Assembly: GCA_000091165.1 (NCBI GenBank) | Contig: FP565575.1 | Location: 2,100,001-2,132,000, forward strand | Length of the DNA stretch: 32,000 bases | Direction of reading: 5' to 3' | DNA from: Candidatus Methylomirabilis oxygeniifera | GTDB lineage: Bacteria > Methylomirabilota > Methylomirabilia > Methylomirabilales > Methylomirabilaceae | In this document: positions 3,803 to 11,402 of the stretch, piece after piece | Layout: the number at the start of each line of letters is the position of its first letter | Numbering within the stretch: the first letter of the stretch is position 1 | Made by a program: the position numbers and the translations under genes | The notes under the pieces: model-generated | The model's database searches: none | The model's input: only the letters and a program-made list of their open reading frames with translations | Told to the model about the DNA's origin: nothing

Positions 3803-4567
3803 TTACGCCGCTTTTTTCTTGCGTCTCACATACAGCACGGCGCCGATTCCCACGCCGGCAACCGTCATCACCAAAATTGCCGGATTGCTCATCATGGACG
3901 GACCGCGCGCGCCCCCCCCCCTGGGTGTCTTCAATCCGACGGTAAAGGGGAAGCTGAAGGTCGAATCGTGTGCATGATACGCCTCCTCTTCCGCTGTACT
4001 GGTATGCTGCTCGGCGCCGTCGTGACTGTGACTGACCGCCTCCGGTGCGTCGCCTCCGGCACGTGATCTCGCTCCCTGCTCCTCAACCTCCAGTACCGCC
4101 CTATACTTCCCGGCTTTTCCGAAATCCGTCTCAGCCCGCACGACACCTGAAGGATAGACCTGTTGAGGGATATACAGAACCGTTTGGGCGTCTTCACGCT
4201 CGGTGGCCTCGACGACGCGGACCGCCACAGGGGTCTTTCGCAGGGCATCGCTGATAAGATCAAACGTCAGCGTCGCCTTTCCTGTTCTTGGAATATCCCG
4301 ACAGTAGGATTGAAACTCTTCCTTCATCGCATCCACGTACCGCCTCAGGTCCGCATCCTTAAGCTCTTTGAGCTGAGCCAGCTGTGAGGCCCGGTCCGCC
4401 GTCCCATGCTGATAGGCGCTGAAGTGAATGAGATACTGCCCTTTCTCCCTCGAACAGAGATCGTTCTCCGTGATCCCACCCATGCCGCCGCCACCGTGAG
4501 CCCATGCCTGCGACGCTCCCATCACAGCCATCAGCGCTACAACTCCAATCGAAACACACTGCTTCAT
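3803..4567 (-). CDS. Secreted, C-terminally membrane-anchored His-rich protein; putative PmoD/AmoD-like periplasmic copper protein (paralogue 1)
   Basis: 254 aa. The signal peptide ends ...GASQAWA and is followed by HGGGG. It carries C38-x7-L-x-H48, EFQSYC, a His/acidic linker (SHSHDGAEQH..YHAHD), SFPFTVGL, one C-terminal TM helix and RRKKK. It lies 300 nt downstream of pmoB on the same strand and has a paralogue at 25467-26243. Confidence 0.85.
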   Translation of the reverse strand: MKQCVSIGVVALMAVMGASQAWAHGGGGMGGITENDLCSREKGQYLIHFSAYQHGTADRASQLAQLKELKDADLRRYVDAMKEEFQSYCRDIPRTGKATLTFDLISDALRKTPVAVRVVEATEREDAQTVLYIPQQVYPSGVVRAETDFGKAGKYRAVLEVEEQGARSRAGGDAPEAVSHSHDGAEQHTSTAEEEAYHAHDSTFSFPFTVGLKTPRGGGARGPSMMSNPAILVMTVAGVGIGAVLYVRRKKKAA

Positions 4568-4800
4568 GGCCTAACCTACTTCCATCGCGACCATCCCCTG
4601 TTGGTCTTTCTCGTACGCTCCCGAAGCACCGCCGTAGTGCATACAACAGATCCCTGCACGCATTGCGTTCACTGAATCGGTCGAGGGAGGTATGTCAACG
4701 AGATTCCGTTCATGGCTCGACAAAGTCCTGACAGGGACGGATGATAAAGGGGATTGTGAGGCACTACACTAACCGTGAGGAATGTTGAATGCGGTGGTGA

Positions 4801-4854
4801 GGGTCCCCCACCCCTTGAATTCTCCGTTATGTGAAGCTCAAGGGGTGGGGACCC
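4801..4854 (-). terminator. Strong GC-rich stem-loop 13 nt after the micro-ORF stop; leaky terminator or 3' mRNA stabiliser of the pmo transcript
   Basis: gggtcccccaccccttga (4801-4818) pairs with tcaaggggtggggaccc (4838-4854), giving a 17-bp stem with one bulged C. No U-tract follows on the minus strand. Confidence 0.45.
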
Positions 4855-4866
4855 TTCCACCTCCAC

Positions 4867-4950
4867 CTATGCCTGGTTCACCAGTGTCATCAGAACAAAT
4901 ATCAGCATGATAAGTAGCGCTAAGTTCATCCCTTGTGCGGCGAATTCCAT
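4867..4950 (-). CDS. 27-aa single-TM micro-protein immediately downstream of pmoB (candidate pMMO-associated peptide)
   Basis: It sits below the 60-aa cutoff of the track, as the C-terminal part of ORF 4867-5130. The ATG at 4950 is preceded by GGAGGGAG with 6-nt spacing and lies 19 nt after the pmoB stop. The peptide is MEFAAQGMNLALLIMLIFVLMTLVNQA. A stem-loop follows. Confidence 0.55.
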   Translation of the reverse strand: MEFAAQGMNLALLIMLIFVLMTLVNQA

Positions 4951-4969
4951 GATCGTCTCCCTCCTTCCG

Positions 4970-6238
4970 CTATTTGTACTGGGTAGTCGGCCGCCATTTG
5001 CCTCCGCCGGACAGGGCCGTTGCGCCACCCTCGAAGGACGGAATGACCGGGCCGCCGACCTCAACAATTTGTCTGTTCTTATCCGCATCAAAGAACTCAA
5101 AGAGTCCGCCGTACCGGCTGTCTGAGTCATAGATCAACTCAGCCAACCGCTGATATTCCCATTCCGCATCGGTCGCATCTATCGACATCGTTACGGTCTG
5201 GCCTGGAGGGATGGGACCGGCCGGCTCCACCTTGATTTTGAGTCGCGAGTCAGGGAAGAGGGCCGGATCCCGAAACTGCAGGTTGGCCGTGATGAATCCT
5301 CCCAATTGCTGAGGCCTGTTTGAACCGTTTGTGACCTCTATCACCATCCCAAGAGAACGTCCAGGTACGGTATAGACCGCTGTGACAGGCCTGGCCTTCA
5401 CCGTGGCATGGGAATACGGCGTAAACTCTGTCGTGGGCTTCAGTTCGGGAGTATCCATCCGACCGGTCTGCAGCGGGATGGTGATTGGGTAGGCGCCGTT
5501 CGTCGTGACGTAGCCGATAGCGACGATGAGGACCGTGGCGATCATCAGTACGAGTCCAAGCGTCCGATCGCCGGGGCTAACAAGCTCCTCCTCAGGTACC
5601 ACTCCCACCTGGAAGAGACGTCGCGTAAATGGCCGTCGTACCCACCACAGCAACCAGAACACACCGACAAAAGTCCAGAGGAGCCACCAGCCGATGATCC
5701 GACCTTGCCCATGGACCTCCATATTCACTGTCGTACCATCAATGGTGGTAACGTTATTGGTGAAGTTACTCCAGTCGCCATCGACGGTGACGAACTCGCC
5801 TCCACCGACCAGGGGCCCTCCACCCTCGATATTCACCATCGGGTGAACGTGATAGGTCCCGGTGACCCGGCCCATAATATTCATTCTATAATCATAGTCT
5901 CCGCCAAGTTGAGTACTGGTGGCGTTGATGACCGGCATGCCATTCATCCATGCCTCTTTCTTGAGCATTGATGGCCCAGGCACGGAGTAATGGAGAAAGA
6001 TCGATTCGGGGGTGTTTACGGCCCTCGGCCATTCACTAAATGTATGGAACTTTCCCGTCAGATCCATGGTCTCGCCAGGCTGTACCCGAGCTTTTGACCA
6101 TTTCGTATCGTAGAACGTTATTGTACGCATCCGAAGAAACGGCTCTTGCGATCGCTCGCCATGCGCCCATGCCGTTCCAGCGGATACGGCGATCACTCCA
6201 AGCAAGATCGCCGACAACGCCGCTCGTCCTATCCTCAT
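4970..6238 (-). CDS. pmoB: Particulate methane monooxygenase subunit B (PmoB)
   Basis: The start was moved to ATG 6238 (GGGAGGAT SD 5 nt upstream) within ORF 4970-6295. The signal peptide ends ...SAGTAWA, then HGERSQEPFLRMRT. It has the YHVHPM His motif, two TM helices (WWLLWTFVGVFWLLWW and LGLVLMIATVLIVAIGYV) and a C-terminal cupredoxin-like domain. Confidence 0.95.
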   Translation of the reverse strand: MRIGRAALSAILLGVIAVSAGTAWAHGERSQEPFLRMRTITFYDTKWSKARVQPGETMDLTGKFHTFSEWPRAVNTPESIFLHYSVPGPSMLKKEAWMNGMPVINATSTQLGGDYDYRMNIMGRVTGTYHVHPMVNIEGGGPLVGGGEFVTVDGDWSNFTNNVTTIDGTTVNMEVHGQGRIIGWWLLWTFVGVFWLLWWVRRPFTRRLFQVGVVPEEELVSPGDRTLGLVLMIATVLIVAIGYVTTNGAYPITIPLQTGRMDTPELKPTTEFTPYSHATVKARPVTAVYTVPGRSLGMVIEVTNGSNRPQQLGGFITANLQFRDPALFPDSRLKIKVEPAGPIPPGQTVTMSIDATDAEWEYQRLAELIYDSDSRYGGLFEFFDADKNRQIVEVGGPVIPSFEGGATALSGGGKWRPTTQYK

Positions 6239-6348: not shown

Positions 6349-7080
6349 CTACGTCCGCGAGATCCATGCCGGCCTTGAGATTACCTTCCCCATCCACACC
6401 CACCAGAGGTAGATAATTCCACTAATAAATCCGGCGAAGAACGAGGAAACCGGCGTAACGTCGCGCCCGAATGTTCGCAGCGTCCCCCGCTCCACGATTC
6501 GGATATACTCCGGCGTGGCGGAGCGCACATACTCCATCCCCATCAGATCAGCGATGGACATGAGCGGCCCGCTGGGATGCTTCACGGCCAAATGAAATGG
6601 CGCCAGCCAGGTCCAGTTCGCCGGATAGAACAACAGGGACCACCCCATGCCACCGAACAGTGCCGTAAACATGTAGCTTCCCGTCATCATCAGCATCACG
6701 TCCAGGAAGATCGCACTGGGGATCATCAGACCCGGGGCGGTAAAATTGACCGGAAACCAGGCCCAATAGTAAAAGTTAAAGACACGATTCATCCATTGTC
6801 CGAAGTGAAGCGTCATCACGCAAAAGGTCGCACCGATCGGCAGACGCATCTTCTCCCACATGAAATATTGCGTCGCCGCAGGGAAGGTAATCAACAGGAT
6901 CGGCGTCAACGTGACCCACCAGCGCCGATCCTTCCAGTCCAGCCAGAAGTCCCAGTCGCCAACGGTCAGCATCTGGTGGATGTGGTACCCCGCAACTGTA
7001 CCTGTGAACGCAGCCACTATGACAATAATATCAAACTTGCGCTCCAGGCTTAGAGCTTGCTGTTGTGTCAAAAGCGCCAT
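6349..7080 (-). CDS. pmoA: Particulate methane monooxygenase subunit A (PmoA)
   Basis: The start was moved to ATG 7080 (GAGGAGGGG SD) within ORF 6349-7143. The product is a 243-aa polytopic membrane protein with the characteristic ...MLTVGDWDFWLDWKDRRWWVT... motif. Confidence 0.95.
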   Translation of the reverse strand: MALLTQQQALSLERKFDIIVIVAAFTGTVAGYHIHQMLTVGDWDFWLDWKDRRWWVTLTPILLITFPAATQYFMWEKMRLPIGATFCVMTLHFGQWMNRVFNFYYWAWFPVNFTAPGLMIPSAIFLDVMLMMTGSYMFTALFGGMGWSLLFYPANWTWLAPFHLAVKHPSGPLMSIADLMGMEYVRSATPEYIRIVERGTLRTFGRDVTPVSSFFAGFISGIIYLWWVWMGKVISRPAWISRT

Positions 7081-7186
7081 AAGCTCTTCCCCTCCTCGAA
7101 GGGAGGGGGGGGGAGCAACCACCCCCCCTCCACATTTGGTCATGTAGACTTTGGGGACCTCAAAAAACGATCCTCAACGAGTATCG

Positions 7187-7963
7187 TTACGCGGTCGCCT
7201 TACCACCGCTGGTGATCCTGATCAACTCAAAGATCCGCGGACACATCGCCGCCGCCACGCCATACACCCCAAACAGACACCAACCCAGCGTGACAAAGCC
7301 CCAATGCAGCGGCGCCACAAACAGCTCTTCCATGATCCAGAAGGTGTGACCCCACTCGTTCAGCGCGACATTGACAAAGATCATCGCAGGGCCGCCGACC
7401 GTGAGCATGAACGGGATCGAGTGGGCCTTCGAAAATAGGGGGAGTCGGGTCCGGGCCCACATGTAGGCGCTAATCCCGATGATGATGTAGATCGGGTAGC
7501 TGAGATAGAACTCAATGATGTGGCTCGGCGTAAAGTCCGTATCGCGGATCACCGTCTGGTGCCACGTCCCGTCCTGCTCGGTAAAGAAGCTGGCGCCCCA
7601 ATACACCGCCCAGGCGAACGTCGCGATCCACTGCCCGAGACCCCAGAACCGCCTGAGCTCCTCCTCCGGCGTAATTTTATCGAGGTTCCGGTCGCGAGTC
7701 TTCCAGATGTACCCCAGGGCGAAGGTCAGCACCGCCCCCTCGATAATCAACTCCCCGATCAACATGTTCCACCAGTAGATCCGGAAGTCCTCGGAGAAGA
7801 AGTCGAGGCCTTTCGACCAGGAGAAGTACTGCTGGTAAATCCGAATCATAACGTAGAAGATGCTAATAGCTATCTGACATTTAAAGAAGGTGCCCCAGCC
7901 AAACATCTGCTCGACTGACTCGGCGCGCTTAGCCGGCGCAGCTTCCGTCCTGTACTGTGCCAT
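7187..7963 (-). CDS. pmoC: Particulate methane monooxygenase subunit C (PmoC)
   Basis: 258 aa, with AAGGAGGAAGG SD before ATG 7963. Conserved PmoC motifs RDTDFTPSH and NEWGHTFWIMEELFVAPLH are present. Gene order C-A-B is canonical. Confidence 0.95.
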   Translation of the reverse strand: MAQYRTEAAPAKRAESVEQMFGWGTFFKCQIAISIFYVMIRIYQQYFSWSKGLDFFSEDFRIYWWNMLIGELIIEGAVLTFALGYIWKTRDRNLDKITPEEELRRFWGLGQWIATFAWAVYWGASFFTEQDGTWHQTVIRDTDFTPSHIIEFYLSYPIYIIIGISAYMWARTRLPLFSKAHSIPFMLTVGGPAMIFVNVALNEWGHTFWIMEELFVAPLHWGFVTLGWCLFGVYGVAAAMCPRIFELIRITSGGKATA

Positions 7964-8276: not shown

Positions 8277-8291
8277 GCAAGGATGGTGCCA
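8277..8291 (-). promoter_or_regulatory. Sigma-54 (-24/-12) promoter upstream of pmoCAB
   Basis: Minus strand reads TGGCAC-catcc-TTGC, an exact match to the TGGCAC-N5-TTGC consensus. It lies about 315 nt upstream of the pmoC ATG and 131-154 bp downstream of a repeated palindrome. A sigma-54 activator gene is adjacent. Confidence 0.6.
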
Positions 8292-8445: not shown

Positions 8446-10116
8446 TCAGACTGAGTCAATCTGCGTCTGTCGTTTCAGACCAAACTGCTCCAGTTTGCGA
8501 TACAGCGTACTGCGGGAGATGCCGAGCTGGGCCGCGGCCTGCGACAAATTCCCCGCACATTGCTGGACGATCTGACAGATGAGCTGCCGTTCGGTCTGCG
8601 CGAGCCAGCCGCCGGGCTCCGGCCGCTCGGAGGCCTCCCCGCGCAGGGTGCGAATCGCCTCGGGAAAGTCGTCCCAGCGGATCTCGGGCCGCGGCAGGAG
8701 CACGCCCACCTGCTGCAGGACATTGCGCAGCTCCCGGACATTGCCGGGCCACGGATACGGGGTGAGCGCGAGCGCGCGCAGCGCCTCCTCCGTAAAGCGC
8801 AGGTCCGGGCAGTGCAAGGCGGCGGCGACATCGGCCAGGAAGGAGGCCGCCAGCAGGGGGATATCCTCCCGCCGCTCCCGCAAGGGCGGCAGGTGGATCG
8901 AAATGACATTGAGCCGGTAGTACAGGTCCTCCCGAAACAGCCCCTTGGCCACCTCTTTGAGCAGGTCTTTATTGGTCGCGGCGATGATGCGGACATCGAG
9001 GGGGACCGGCTGGCCGCTCCCTAGTCGGGTGAGCTCCTGCTGCTCCAGCACCCGCAGGAGCGCCACCTGGGTGCTGGGCGAGCACTCGCTGACCTCATCG
9101 AGGAAGAGGGTGCCGCCCTGGGCCTCTTCGAACCGGCCCGACCGGCCGCCTTTGCGCGCGCCGGTAAAGGTGCCGTCTTCATAGCCGAACAGCTCAGACT
9201 CGATCAGCTCCCGGGGGATGGCACCGCAGTTGACCGCGATGAACGGCTTGGGGGCGCGGGGGGAGCTGGCGTGGATCGCATGCGCGAGCATCTCTTTCCC
9301 GGTCCCCGATTCCCCGGTGATGAGGACGGAGAGGGTGTTGCCGGCGGCGATGAGGCCGATCTTGGTCGCGTTGCGGAAGGCGGCGGACTGCCCCACCAGA
9401 TCGGCAAAGGTGTACTTGGCCCCCACCACGATCGCCTTGGGCTTGCGGGGGACGGGCGGCTCCAGTCGGGCGGTCGGAAAGAGCACGGCGGCGGCGACCA
9501 CCTGCGAGCCGTGCCGGAGCGCCAGGCCCCAGGCCGTAAGGAGCCGGCCGCTACGCCCGCAGTAGACCTTGACCTCCTGGGGGCTGGAGGGGGCACGGGT
9601 CAGCAGGGTGCGGCCGACCTCGGCCAGCTCCGGGATCGCCGCGACGGAGGGCCGGGCGGGGTCGAGCTGCAGCAGGTGCGCGGCGGCCCGATTGCACAGC
9701 AGCACCTGCCCCTGCGGATCCAGCACCAGCAGGCCGTCGCTGAGCAACTCCGCGGCGGCGGTGAGCGGCCCCAGCAGCGCCTCGGCAGCGCGCGCCGGCG
9801 GGACGTCGGGCAACGGCGGGGCGAGGAGCGAGCCGGCTAAGAGCTCGATCACCAGATCGCTTTGGACGTGGGTGCGGCAGAGCAGGACGTGGCCCTGGGC
9901 CTGCTCGCTGGCGGAGAGCACGTGATCCGGCGGCGCGACCAGGTGGGCCTGGCCGCTGCGGAGGCGGGCCTTACAGCCCCCGCACTCGCCGTCCGCGCAG
10001 CGGTAATCGACCAGGCGCAGGCCCTGGCGCAGGGCGACCTGCAGGACCGACTCGGTGTCGTCACACTCGATGGTGATGCCCAGCGGTTCAAACCGGACCT
10101 TGCGCATCCGCGTCAT
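8446..10116 (-). CDS. Sigma-54-dependent transcriptional activator with N-terminal 2Fe-2S ferredoxin-like domain and PAS-like sensor region
   Basis: The N-terminus has C-ADGE-C-GG-C ... LLC (a plant-type Cx4Cx2C..C pattern). A PAS-like LLVLDPQGQVLLCNRAAAHLL follows. The AAA+ domain has Walker A GESGTGKE, GTFTGA (a GAFTGA variant) and GGTLFLDEV. The C-terminal Fis-type HTH is LSQAAAQLGISRSTLYRKL. ATG 10116 has AGGAG 9 nt upstream; an alternative GTG at 10182 overlaps the helicase stop (GTGA). Confidence 0.9.
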   Translation of the reverse strand: MTRMRKVRFEPLGITIECDDTESVLQVALRQGLRLVDYRCADGECGGCKARLRSGQAHLVAPPDHVLSASEQAQGHVLLCRTHVQSDLVIELLAGSLLAPPLPDVPPARAAEALLGPLTAAAELLSDGLLVLDPQGQVLLCNRAAAHLLQLDPARPSVAAIPELAEVGRTLLTRAPSSPQEVKVYCGRSGRLLTAWGLALRHGSQVVAAAVLFPTARLEPPVPRKPKAIVVGAKYTFADLVGQSAAFRNATKIGLIAAGNTLSVLITGESGTGKEMLAHAIHASSPRAPKPFIAVNCGAIPRELIESELFGYEDGTFTGARKGGRSGRFEEAQGGTLFLDEVSECSPSTQVALLRVLEQQELTRLGSGQPVPLDVRIIAATNKDLLKEVAKGLFREDLYYRLNVISIHLPPLRERREDIPLLAASFLADVAAALHCPDLRFTEEALRALALTPYPWPGNVRELRNVLQQVGVLLPRPEIRWDDFPEAIRTLRGEASERPEPGGWLAQTERQLICQIVQQCAGNLSQAAAQLGISRSTLYRKLEQFGLKRQTQIDSV

Positions 10117-10178
10117 CCTCGTGGACTCCTGGGGGGTCCCCTGCCGTCCGGCGGGCACGCCGGACGGCATCGGGGGGC

Positions 10179-11402
10179 TCACGCCCCCTCGGTTTCCGCC
10201 GACTTTCGACCCTGGCGCACGCTATTCGCGGCCACCGCGGCACCGGCAGCTACCCCTGGGGCAAACGCCGATTCGTCCGGCCACTGCACAGGAATCTTAA
10301 ACCCGATGTACCGCTCGATCGCATCAAGCGACAGCACATATTCCTCGTCAGCCAGACTGATCGCCTTACCGGCTGCCCCGGCCCGCGCCGTTCGTCCGAT
10401 CCGGTGGACGTAATCTTCCGGGTCCTGCGGGAGGTCGTAGTTGATCACGTGACTGACCGCCTCAACATGCAACCCACGCGATGCGACATCGGTCGCCACC
10501 AGGATCGGCAGCGTGCCCGCTTTGAACTTGGTGATAATCTGGAGGCGCTTACGCTGATCGATGCTACCGCTGATCAGGCCCGCCCGGAAGCCGCACCGGA
10601 CCAACTTATCAGTGAGCCGCTCGGCGCCCTGCCGAGTATTCGAAAAGATCAGGATCCGTTGCCACGCCTCGCGCTGAAGCAACCAGCGCAACAGCCGGAA
10701 TTTTTCCTGCTTCTCGACGTGAAAGAGCAGATGTTCAACCTTGTCGACCGTAACCTGTTCCGGGGAAATGGCGACCTTAATCGGATTATTCATAAACTCG
10801 TACGACAGCTCCATCTCTCGAAATGAAAGCGTCGCCGAAAACAGGAATGACTGACGCTTATGGTAGGGGGGGAGCCGCCTCAGCAGGAAGCGAAGGTCCT
10901 TGATGAACCCCATGTCGAACATCCGGTCGGCCTCGTCCACAACCAGGACTTCGACTTGAGAGAGTTCGTAGACCCCCTGCTTGAAGTAATCGATGAGCCG
11001 CCCGGGTGTTCCGATGAGGATATCGACGTTCTGTTGAAGCGCGTCCCGCTGTTTCTGATAGTCCACCCCTCCATAGGCTGCGAGCCGTGTCAGGCCGGTG
11101 AATCCACCCAACAACTCCGCATCCCACAGGATCTGCACGGCCAGCTCACGCGTGGGCGCCAGGATCAGGGCTCGGGGGGCGCCGGAAAGCGTAGGGTGTC
11201 TTGAAGTGAGTAGTCTGACAAAGAGGGGGATCAGGAAAGCGGCTGTCTTACCGCTGCCGGTCTGAGCTTGCCCGGCAATATCTTTCCCCGCCAGGGCGAG
11301 CGGCAGCGTCTCAGCCTGGATCGGTGTACACTGAGTAAAACCGGCCGCCTCTATTCCCCTCGCGATCGACGCGGGAAGTGAAAAGGTGTCGAAGGTCGTC
11401 AT
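10179..11402 (-). CDS. DEAD-box ATP-dependent RNA helicase
   Basis: 407 aa. Motifs seen: Q-motif ...GFTQCTPIQ, AQTGSGKT, PTRELA, DEAD, SAT and HRIGRTARAG. Confidence 0.92.
   Translation of the reverse strand: MTTFDTFSLPASIARGIEAAGFTQCTPIQAETLPLALAGKDIAGQAQTGSGKTAAFLIPLFVRLLTSRHPTLSGAPRALILAPTRELAVQILWDAELLGGFTGLTRLAAYGGVDYQKQRDALQQNVDILIGTPGRLIDYFKQGVYELSQVEVLVVDEADRMFDMGFIKDLRFLLRRLPPYHKRQSFLFSATLSFREMELSYEFMNNPIKVAISPEQVTVDKVEHLLFHVEKQEKFRLLRWLLQREAWQRILIFSNTRQGAERLTDKLVRCGFRAGLISGSIDQRKRLQIITKFKAGTLPILVATDVASRGLHVEAVSHVINYDLPQDPEDYVHRIGRTARAGAAGKAISLADEEYVLSLDAIERYIGFKIPVQWPDESAFAPGVAAGAAVAANSVRQGRKSAETEGA

Follow-up and report, generated by a model that had tools for sequence, protein, structure and literature searches.

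A Probable Micro-Gene after pmoB in Methylomirabilis-Type pmo Operons and Its Predicted Membrane Helix, a Candidate pMMO Subunit

pMMO is the main biological methane-oxidizing enzyme and, to our knowledge, active recombinant pMMO has not yet been produced. The isolated enzyme loses much of its activity (PMC11725843). Since 2024, structures determined in native membranes have revealed small extra helices, the genes for which are scattered or unannotated. In the pMMO of Methylocystis sp. Rockwell (PDB 9CL5), the helix next to PmoC is a 23-residue protein (Tucci and Rosenzweig, PNAS 2024, PMC11725843) that sits in a groove on PmoC (PMC11725843; PMC13058606); a preliminary description of the DNA analyzed here still treated the Methylocystis helix as unassigned, a statement outdated by that 2024 assignment. 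An unexpected helix beside AmoC in the N. europaea AMO (PDB 9CL6) corresponds to an unannotated 46-residue ORF, and a similar unassigned helix was seen in M. capsulatus Bath pMMO (PMC11725843). The same helix type is present in N. halophila AMO (PDB 9LEG), where it is called ‘AmoD’; its gene, found in one Nitrosomonas lineage, is remote from the amo operon and neighbors TCA and c-di-GMP genes (PMC12804982). Supernumerary helices are dispensable in some enzymes, since the AMO of N. briensis is without any (PMC12801151). Archaeal AMO has several extra small membrane subunits, partly encoded beside the amo genes (PMC10030591; bioRxiv 10.64898/2026.08.31.748207). That such enzymes can carry extra small membrane subunits, as the preliminary description noted for archaeal AMO, is established by the cited pMMO and AMO structures.

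Peptides of <40 residues with a single transmembrane (TM) helix, encoded in the operon of their own complex, are also known outside these enzymes, e.g. KdpF (KdpFABC) and CydX (cytochrome bd). Micro-subunits of this type are often missed by gene callers, and they stabilize rather than catalyze.

The window, i.e. the whole 32,000-nt stretch of DNA that was analyzed, contains on its minus strand a pmo locus with the gene order pmoC-pmoA-pmoB-micro-ORF-hairpin-pmoD, in which the following features were identified:

8446-10182, minus strand: sigma-54 activator gene, from its domain content
8277..8291, minus strand: sigma-54 promoter consensus TGGCAC-N5-TTGC, from a 0-mismatch motif match
7187..7963, minus strand: pmoC (Pfam PF04896, E 9e-93)
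6349..7143, minus strand: pmoA (Pfam PF02461, E 3e-95)
4970..6238, minus strand: pmoB (Pfam PF04744, E 9e-121; PmoB chains in the PDB)
4957..4964, minus strand: Shine-Dalgarno sequence GGAGGGAG, 6 nt 5′ of ATG 4950
4867..4950, minus strand: micro-ORF of 27 codons plus stop, product MEFAAQGMNLALLIMLIFVLMTLVNQA
4791..4866, minus strand: GC-rich stem-loop, from its folding energy relative to shuffles
3803..4567, minus strand: pmoD homologue, 254 aa (match to PmoD of PDB 6CPD, E 2e-6)

PDB matches for the PmoB of the window are to proteobacterial pMMO and AMO only. The longest pmoB ORF extends to 6295 and would encode 441 residues; because full-length NC10-type homologues have 422–423 residues, the true start is probably ATG 6238, which places pmoB ∼110 nt from pmoA. 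Pfam scanning of the other flanking ORFs identified FtsH beyond the PmoD homologue and the sigma-54 activator beyond pmoC. The pmoB stop codon (TAG, 4972-4970, minus strand) is followed by a 19-nt spacer (4969-4951), after which the micro-ORF (84 nt) opens at ATG 4950-4948 and closes at TAG 4869-4867. The initial account of this arrangement, with GGAGGGAG 6 nt ahead of ATG 4950 and 27 codons, was accurate. Lying 19 nt after pmoB with a strong Shine-Dalgarno sequence of its own, the peptide should be made from the mRNA of PmoB, and the micro-ORF would rank as a fourth cistron in pmoCAB operons of the Methylomirabilis type (NC10).

The product, MEFAAQGMNLALLIMLIFVLMTLVNQA, has 27 residues without Lys or Arg and a computed monoisotopic mass of 2994.58 Da, and is predicted to form one membrane helix. 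Lys, Arg, and Cys are absent from every orthologue (12 sequences), with GRAVY values of 1.56–1.76. The hydrophobic core is short (17–19 residues), and on the Hessa hydrophobicity scale the best 19-residue segments have approximate sums between 0 and −3.7 kcal/mol; by these sums, membrane insertion would be borderline to favorable. The lack of Lys and Arg means that no tryptic peptides arise, and the product would for this reason have been overlooked by proteomics. Common gene callers apply a 90-nt minimum and would skip the micro-ORF since it has only 84 nt. A search of 5.8 billion predicted-protein clusters with a 102-aa concatenation of four variants returned no match at E ≤ 10; the micro-ORF has apparently never been called as a gene, in line with its description as unannotated. 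It would thus be a concrete example of a functional gene that falls under the length limits of gene callers and is invisible to tryptic proteomics. Comparative genomics of Methylomirabilis names only pmoA, pmoB, and pmoC for the operon (PMC6094997), and full-text literature searches on Methylomirabilis pMMO structure or small proteins yielded no relevant report of the micro-ORF.

Relatives of the locus were collected by one species-representative genome scan, one metagenome scan, and three exact PmoB sequence look-ups, which gave 11 loci with NC10-type pmoB (L001–L011) whose PmoB is 72%–96% identical to that of the window; the comparison set is small, with 12 sequences including the window, several of them nearly identical. 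One of these loci, L001 (DATMXF010000206.1), is titled ‘Patescibacteria group bacterium’ and is almost certainly a mis-binned contig: it carries an NC10-type pmoCAB with PmoB 94%–96% identical to that of the window, and has the micro-ORF. All 11 relatives have an ATG-initiated ORF of 25–27 codons after pmoB, and a Shine-Dalgarno sequence with a GGAG core lies 6–8 nt ahead of the ATG in 12/12 sequences. The distance from the pmoB stop to the micro-ORF is 15–21 nt in ten of the 11 relatives. The exception is L009, where an extra hairpin (68 nt) lies between pmoB and the micro-ORF, and the Shine-Dalgarno sequence and ORF are intact and shifted together; this second GC-rich hairpin (2540-2607), 5′ of the Shine-Dalgarno sequence, is accompanied by a shorter, different hairpin 3′ of the ORF. 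The insertion may uncouple expression of the peptide from that of PmoB.

Across the 12 sequences, no frameshifts or internal stops occur in the micro-ORF, and its length variation reflects one in-frame two-codon indel near the N terminus. Comparison of the window with L002–L006 gave Nei-Gojobori dN/dS values of 0.04–0.17 at dS 0.4–2.4, with a synonymous excess in each pair (binomial p 1e-4 to 1e-2); farther pairs gave 0.2–0.4, reaching 0.94 in one pair. Where PmoB is 72%–76% identical the peptide is 56%–60% identical, i.e. it changes somewhat faster than PmoB. Taken together, these substitutions indicate that the peptide is under purifying selection. The preliminary description had proposed that a real gene should be conserved at the equivalent position in related genomes, and we find an ORF there in 11/11 NC10-type relatives, with synonymous changes far outnumbering non-synonymous ones and zero frameshifts. 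On this evidence the micro-ORF is very probably a real, translated gene.

The residues that are invariant (27-aa numbering) are A5, G7, A11, M15, V19, T22, L23, N25, Q26, and A27. The C-terminal TL-x-NQA is unchanged across the orthologues, with N-Q-A at the very end. Residues G7, A11, M15, V19, T22/L23, and Q26 follow an i, i+4 or i+3 spacing and fall on one face of a helix, interleaved with variable positions 6, 9–10, 13, 17, 21, and 24, and the opposite face changes freely between hydrophobic residues. The helical moment of variability is maximal at 100° per residue (permutation p ∼0.001). This pattern fits a TM helix with one face, a GxxxA-type surface, on a protein partner and the other exposed to lipid, and the one-sided periodic conservation suggests that the peptide binds some partner. 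A membrane helix with a specific partner is, on these grounds, the likely nature of the product. In one subclade (L008 2784-2861, L010 2048-2125, and L011 1720-1797; MEAFGLVLAEAIML...), Glu replaces the otherwise conserved Leu12 in mid-helix. If anything, Glu12 would suit a helix embedded in a complex better than one standing free in lipid. A search of PmoB for a change that might compensate for this Glu gave no interpretable candidate: the subclade carries numerous substitutions of its own, V213K and N247K among them, and is represented by three near-identical sequences.

Of the described systems, the Rockwell pMMO helix is like the NC10 peptide in being a very small (23 versus 25–27 aa) single hydrophobic helix. 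Association with a bacterial pMMO is demonstrated for the Rockwell helix and proposed for the NC10 peptide. The two show no detectable sequence similarity (E ≤ 10), as judged by a PDB-wide search rather than from the 9CL5 chain itself, and the Rockwell gene is apparently located elsewhere, whereas the NC10 one is positioned as the fourth cistron of the operon. Within 10 kb either side of pmoCAB, the Methylocystis genome sampled contains no hydrophobic micro-ORF (20–45 or 22–24 aa); short-ORF candidates near pmoCAB were rejected, being either pieces of known genes or peptides of implausible composition. The Nitrosomonas AMO helix also derives from a small unannotated ORF, has one TM helix, and occurs in one lineage only; it binds AmoC through lipids. 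It differs in length (46 versus 27 aa), in an orientation reported as opposite to that of the Rockwell helix, in the location of its gene outside the amo operon, and in sequence, the NC10 peptide having no match to it in the PDB at E ≤ 10. AmoX, AmoY, and AmoZ add small membrane subunits to a copper membrane monooxygenase, but they are archaeal and show no similarity to the NC10 peptide (Pfam, NCBIfam, PDB, E ≤ 10). They are also larger than the NC10 peptide. KdpF and CydX resemble it as short single-TM ORFs in an operon, with their own ribosome binding site and conserved together with that operon; their complexes are unrelated to pMMO and homology is absent, so the likeness concerns mechanism and does not make the NC10 peptide one of their family. 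By these comparisons, the NC10 peptide is most likely an unrelated, operon-encoded counterpart of the Methylocystis and Nitrosomonas helices.

We propose that the peptide inserts in the membrane as a single helix, and that its invariant face (G7-xxx-A11-xxx-M15-xxx-V19-xx-T22/L23-xx-Q26) would pack on the membrane domain of pMMO, probably on PmoC. The docking site, by analogy, would be the PmoC groove, possibly via a bound lipid. In such a complex the helical stretch ...GMNLALLIMLIFVLMTLVNQA would have G7, A11, M15, V19, T22, and Q26 turned to PmoC, and the peptide might serve as a small supernumerary subunit stabilizing the complex, a bound lipid, or membrane packing. The pMMO core is the somewhat favored partner, given the operon position of the gene and the analogy with known helices. 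Points that weigh against it are the short hydrophobic core, Glu12 in one subclade, the dN/dS of up to 0.94 among far pairs, the small set of sequences, the lack of any similar solved chain, the confinement of the ORF to one clade, and the N. briensis AMO, which has no such helix. The original suggestion of a fourth subunit or assembly factor thus stands in part: a real membrane-helix gene is very probable, and the assignment to pMMO draws on position and analogy. Small extra TM subunits being already known for these enzymes, the previously unreported NC10 micro-gene is a good candidate for another. Its presence in the pmo operon would predict part of the content of an NC10 pMMO structure, offer an extra component for pMMO expression constructs, and support the view that these enzymes have gained supernumerary helices repeatedly and independently. 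A further, tentative possibility, which we hold to be rather doubtful, is that the peptide is the first bacterial supernumerary subunit of a copper membrane monooxygenase to be found inside a pmo operon, evolved independently, whose conserved face and N-Q-A tail dock on PmoC by CuC/CuD or its gating lipid, thereby adjusting activity or the packing of arrays. If so, supernumerary helices would be a convergent, functionally needed feature of copper membrane monooxygenases, and the linkage to pmoB would make the gene a tractable genetic tool for producing active pMMO in other hosts.

Alternatively, the gene may encode a real membrane micro-protein with a partner outside the PmoCAB core, e.g. the C-terminal TM helix of PmoD; it might also act just transiently, as an assembly or insertion factor, or belong to a different membrane complex altogether. 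The conserved helix face implies a partner and not its identity, and the extra L009 hairpin between pmoB and the ORF hints at a stoichiometry uncoupled from PmoB. The next gene after the hairpin is, moreover, a pmoD homologue: the 254-aa ORF at 4567-3803 has no Pfam or NCBIfam matches, but matches Methylocystis PmoD (PDB 6CPD) with an E value of 2e-6. A C-terminal TM helix is typical of PmoD proteins (PMC13058606), and the PmoD homologue is a possible alternative partner for the micro-protein. However, the micro-ORF precedes the strong hairpin, as pmoB does, and is close to the pmoB stop (15–21 nt) in all relatives except one, the conserved hairpin and ∼220 nt separate it from pmoD, and the precedents are stable subunits resolved in structures (PMC11725843). 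We consider a partner other than the pMMO core unlikely, if less so than the alternatives that follow. The micro-ORF is itself no cupredoxin-like PmoD/AmoD: a 27-residue product has no room for the periplasmic domain of ∼130 aa and its C-terminal TM helix, and the PmoD homologue is the separate ORF at 4567-3803. ORFs of 237–253 aa also follow pmoB in L010, L011, and L012, one of them cut at the contig end; these are similar in size to the PmoD homologue.

The stem-loop 3′ of the micro-ORF (4866-4791, minus strand) has a folding energy of −50.8 kcal/mol (z = −6.0), and 0/200 shuffled sequences fold as well. Its outer stem begins directly 3′ of the micro-ORF stop, at 4866, and its core stem has 17 bp, with 4854-4838 pairing with 4818-4801 around one bulge. 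The 17-bp GC stem-loop reported earlier is therefore real, with the correction that the core starts 12 nt, rather than 13 nt, after the stop. A strong hairpin is found at the same place in 12/12 loci, at ∼11–14 nt from the stop; compensatory changes preserve it among relatives, and the L005 and L009 versions are unrelated in sequence. No U-tract follows the hairpin in the window and the terminator scan makes no call there, and we accordingly rejected its identification as a canonical terminator. The earlier description of the micro-ORF as the last cistron before the structure that closes the pmo transcript is correct in the order of the elements, but termination itself lacks the support of a U-tract; that the transcript ends at the hairpin is something we infer. 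Candidate roles for the hairpin are those of a terminator, an RNA-stabilizing 3′ structure, or a processing site.

This geometry raises the possibility that the micro-ORF is mainly regulatory and its peptide incidental: a ribosome terminating at UAG 4869-4867 would occupy the hairpin base, and translation would modulate whether the hairpin forms, with effects on the 3′ end, on read-through into pmoD, or on mRNA stability. The outer stem adjoining the stop codon, the core 12 nt further on, the stop-to-hairpin spacing kept in every locus, and the missing U-tract are all consistent with this proposal. However, a purely regulatory ORF has no need for dN/dS values as low as 0.04–0.17, an invariant TL-x-NQA, or helical periodicity, and ordinary genes at the end of an operon often have a hairpin close behind the stop. 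A mainly regulatory ORF is quite improbable to our judgment, and a dual role combining peptide and regulation is possible.

A chance reading frame in a 3′ UTR conserved at the nucleotide level, from which no peptide is made, would be in keeping with the abundance of short ORFs in the window, with the absence of the micro-ORF from gene-caller output (5.8 billion clusters), and with a set of relatives that are moderately diverged and include some near-duplicates. In the first 12 kb of the window alone, 177 ORFs reach 20 aa or more and, short ORFs being so plentiful here, the micro-ORF is by itself no evidence for a gene; it is conservation, not ORF size, that goes beyond chance. Over 21 codons, the variable columns at codon positions 1/2/3 number 13/5/17, a pattern expected when NTN codons specify a hydrophobic helix; nucleotide-level conservation offers no reason for third positions to vary at 17/21 versus second positions at 5/21. 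Between groups, dS is near saturation, yet the encoded residues persist. The one indel preserves the frame, the Shine-Dalgarno sequence is conserved, and the DNA past the hairpin is no longer alignable between loci. Together these observations leave a chance ORF very improbable.

A toxin of a type I toxin-antitoxin system, which the peptide resembles in size and hydrophobicity, or a modified-peptide precursor such as methanobactin MbnA, a small precursor made by methanotrophs, the cores of which depend on Cys, is scarcely credible, given that no orthologue has Cys, that Pfam found no peptide-modifying enzymes among six flanking ORFs scanned, that a strong Shine-Dalgarno sequence in a presumably very highly expressed operon is unlike a toxin, that the position is fixed after pmoB and not mobile, and that an Rfam search of the whole window returned no matches, antisense RNA families included.

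The reading of the micro-ORF as a gene for a candidate pMMO helix can be set against its distribution. A profile HMM built from ten distinct peptides was run against 5,126 six-frame segments covering the whole window and every locus fetched. It matched only the 12 NC10 copies, with no second copy of the micro-ORF in the window. Pfam and NCBIfam gave no matches with either the peptide or the profile as query, and searches of every PDB chain with 20 or more residues (phmmer with the peptide; hmmsearch with the 10-sequence profile) gave only unrelated matches with E values of 3.8–5. In the next-closest lineage (L012, PmoB 51% identical), pmoB is followed by a hairpin and then by a 237-aa gene, with no micro-ORF. 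No independent hydrophobic micro-ORF follows pmoB in L019 (PmoB 46%), L020 and L021 (42%), L022 (Binatia, 43%), or L023 (37% type), the next gene beginning 4–98 nt past pmoB in these five loci. The Methylocystis loci (L013–L018) have a canonical terminator with a U-tract after pmoB and no micro-ORF. Among the loci compared, the micro-gene is specific to the Methylomirabilis-type pmo operon and, being limited to one clade, is not a general requirement of the enzyme. The two pmoCAB copies of Methylocystis bryophila (L013 and L014, AP027149.1) are identical through the terminator after pmoB, and just one of them precedes pmoD-copC-copD and an LpqE-like gene.

At the other end of the operon, the sigma-54 consensus TGGCAC-N5-TTGC at 8277-8291 (minus strand), ∼315 nt upstream of pmoC, is the sole 0-mismatch match in the window, and the same motif is present upstream of pmoC in L001 (672-686, plus strand). 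This site is probably the promoter of the transcript carrying pmoCAB and the micro-ORF. The sequence of this region suggests that the NC10 pmo operon is under sigma-54 and redox-dependent control. The sigma-54 activator gene directly upstream has an unusual N terminus, comprising a 2Fe-2S ferredoxin domain and a PAS domain.
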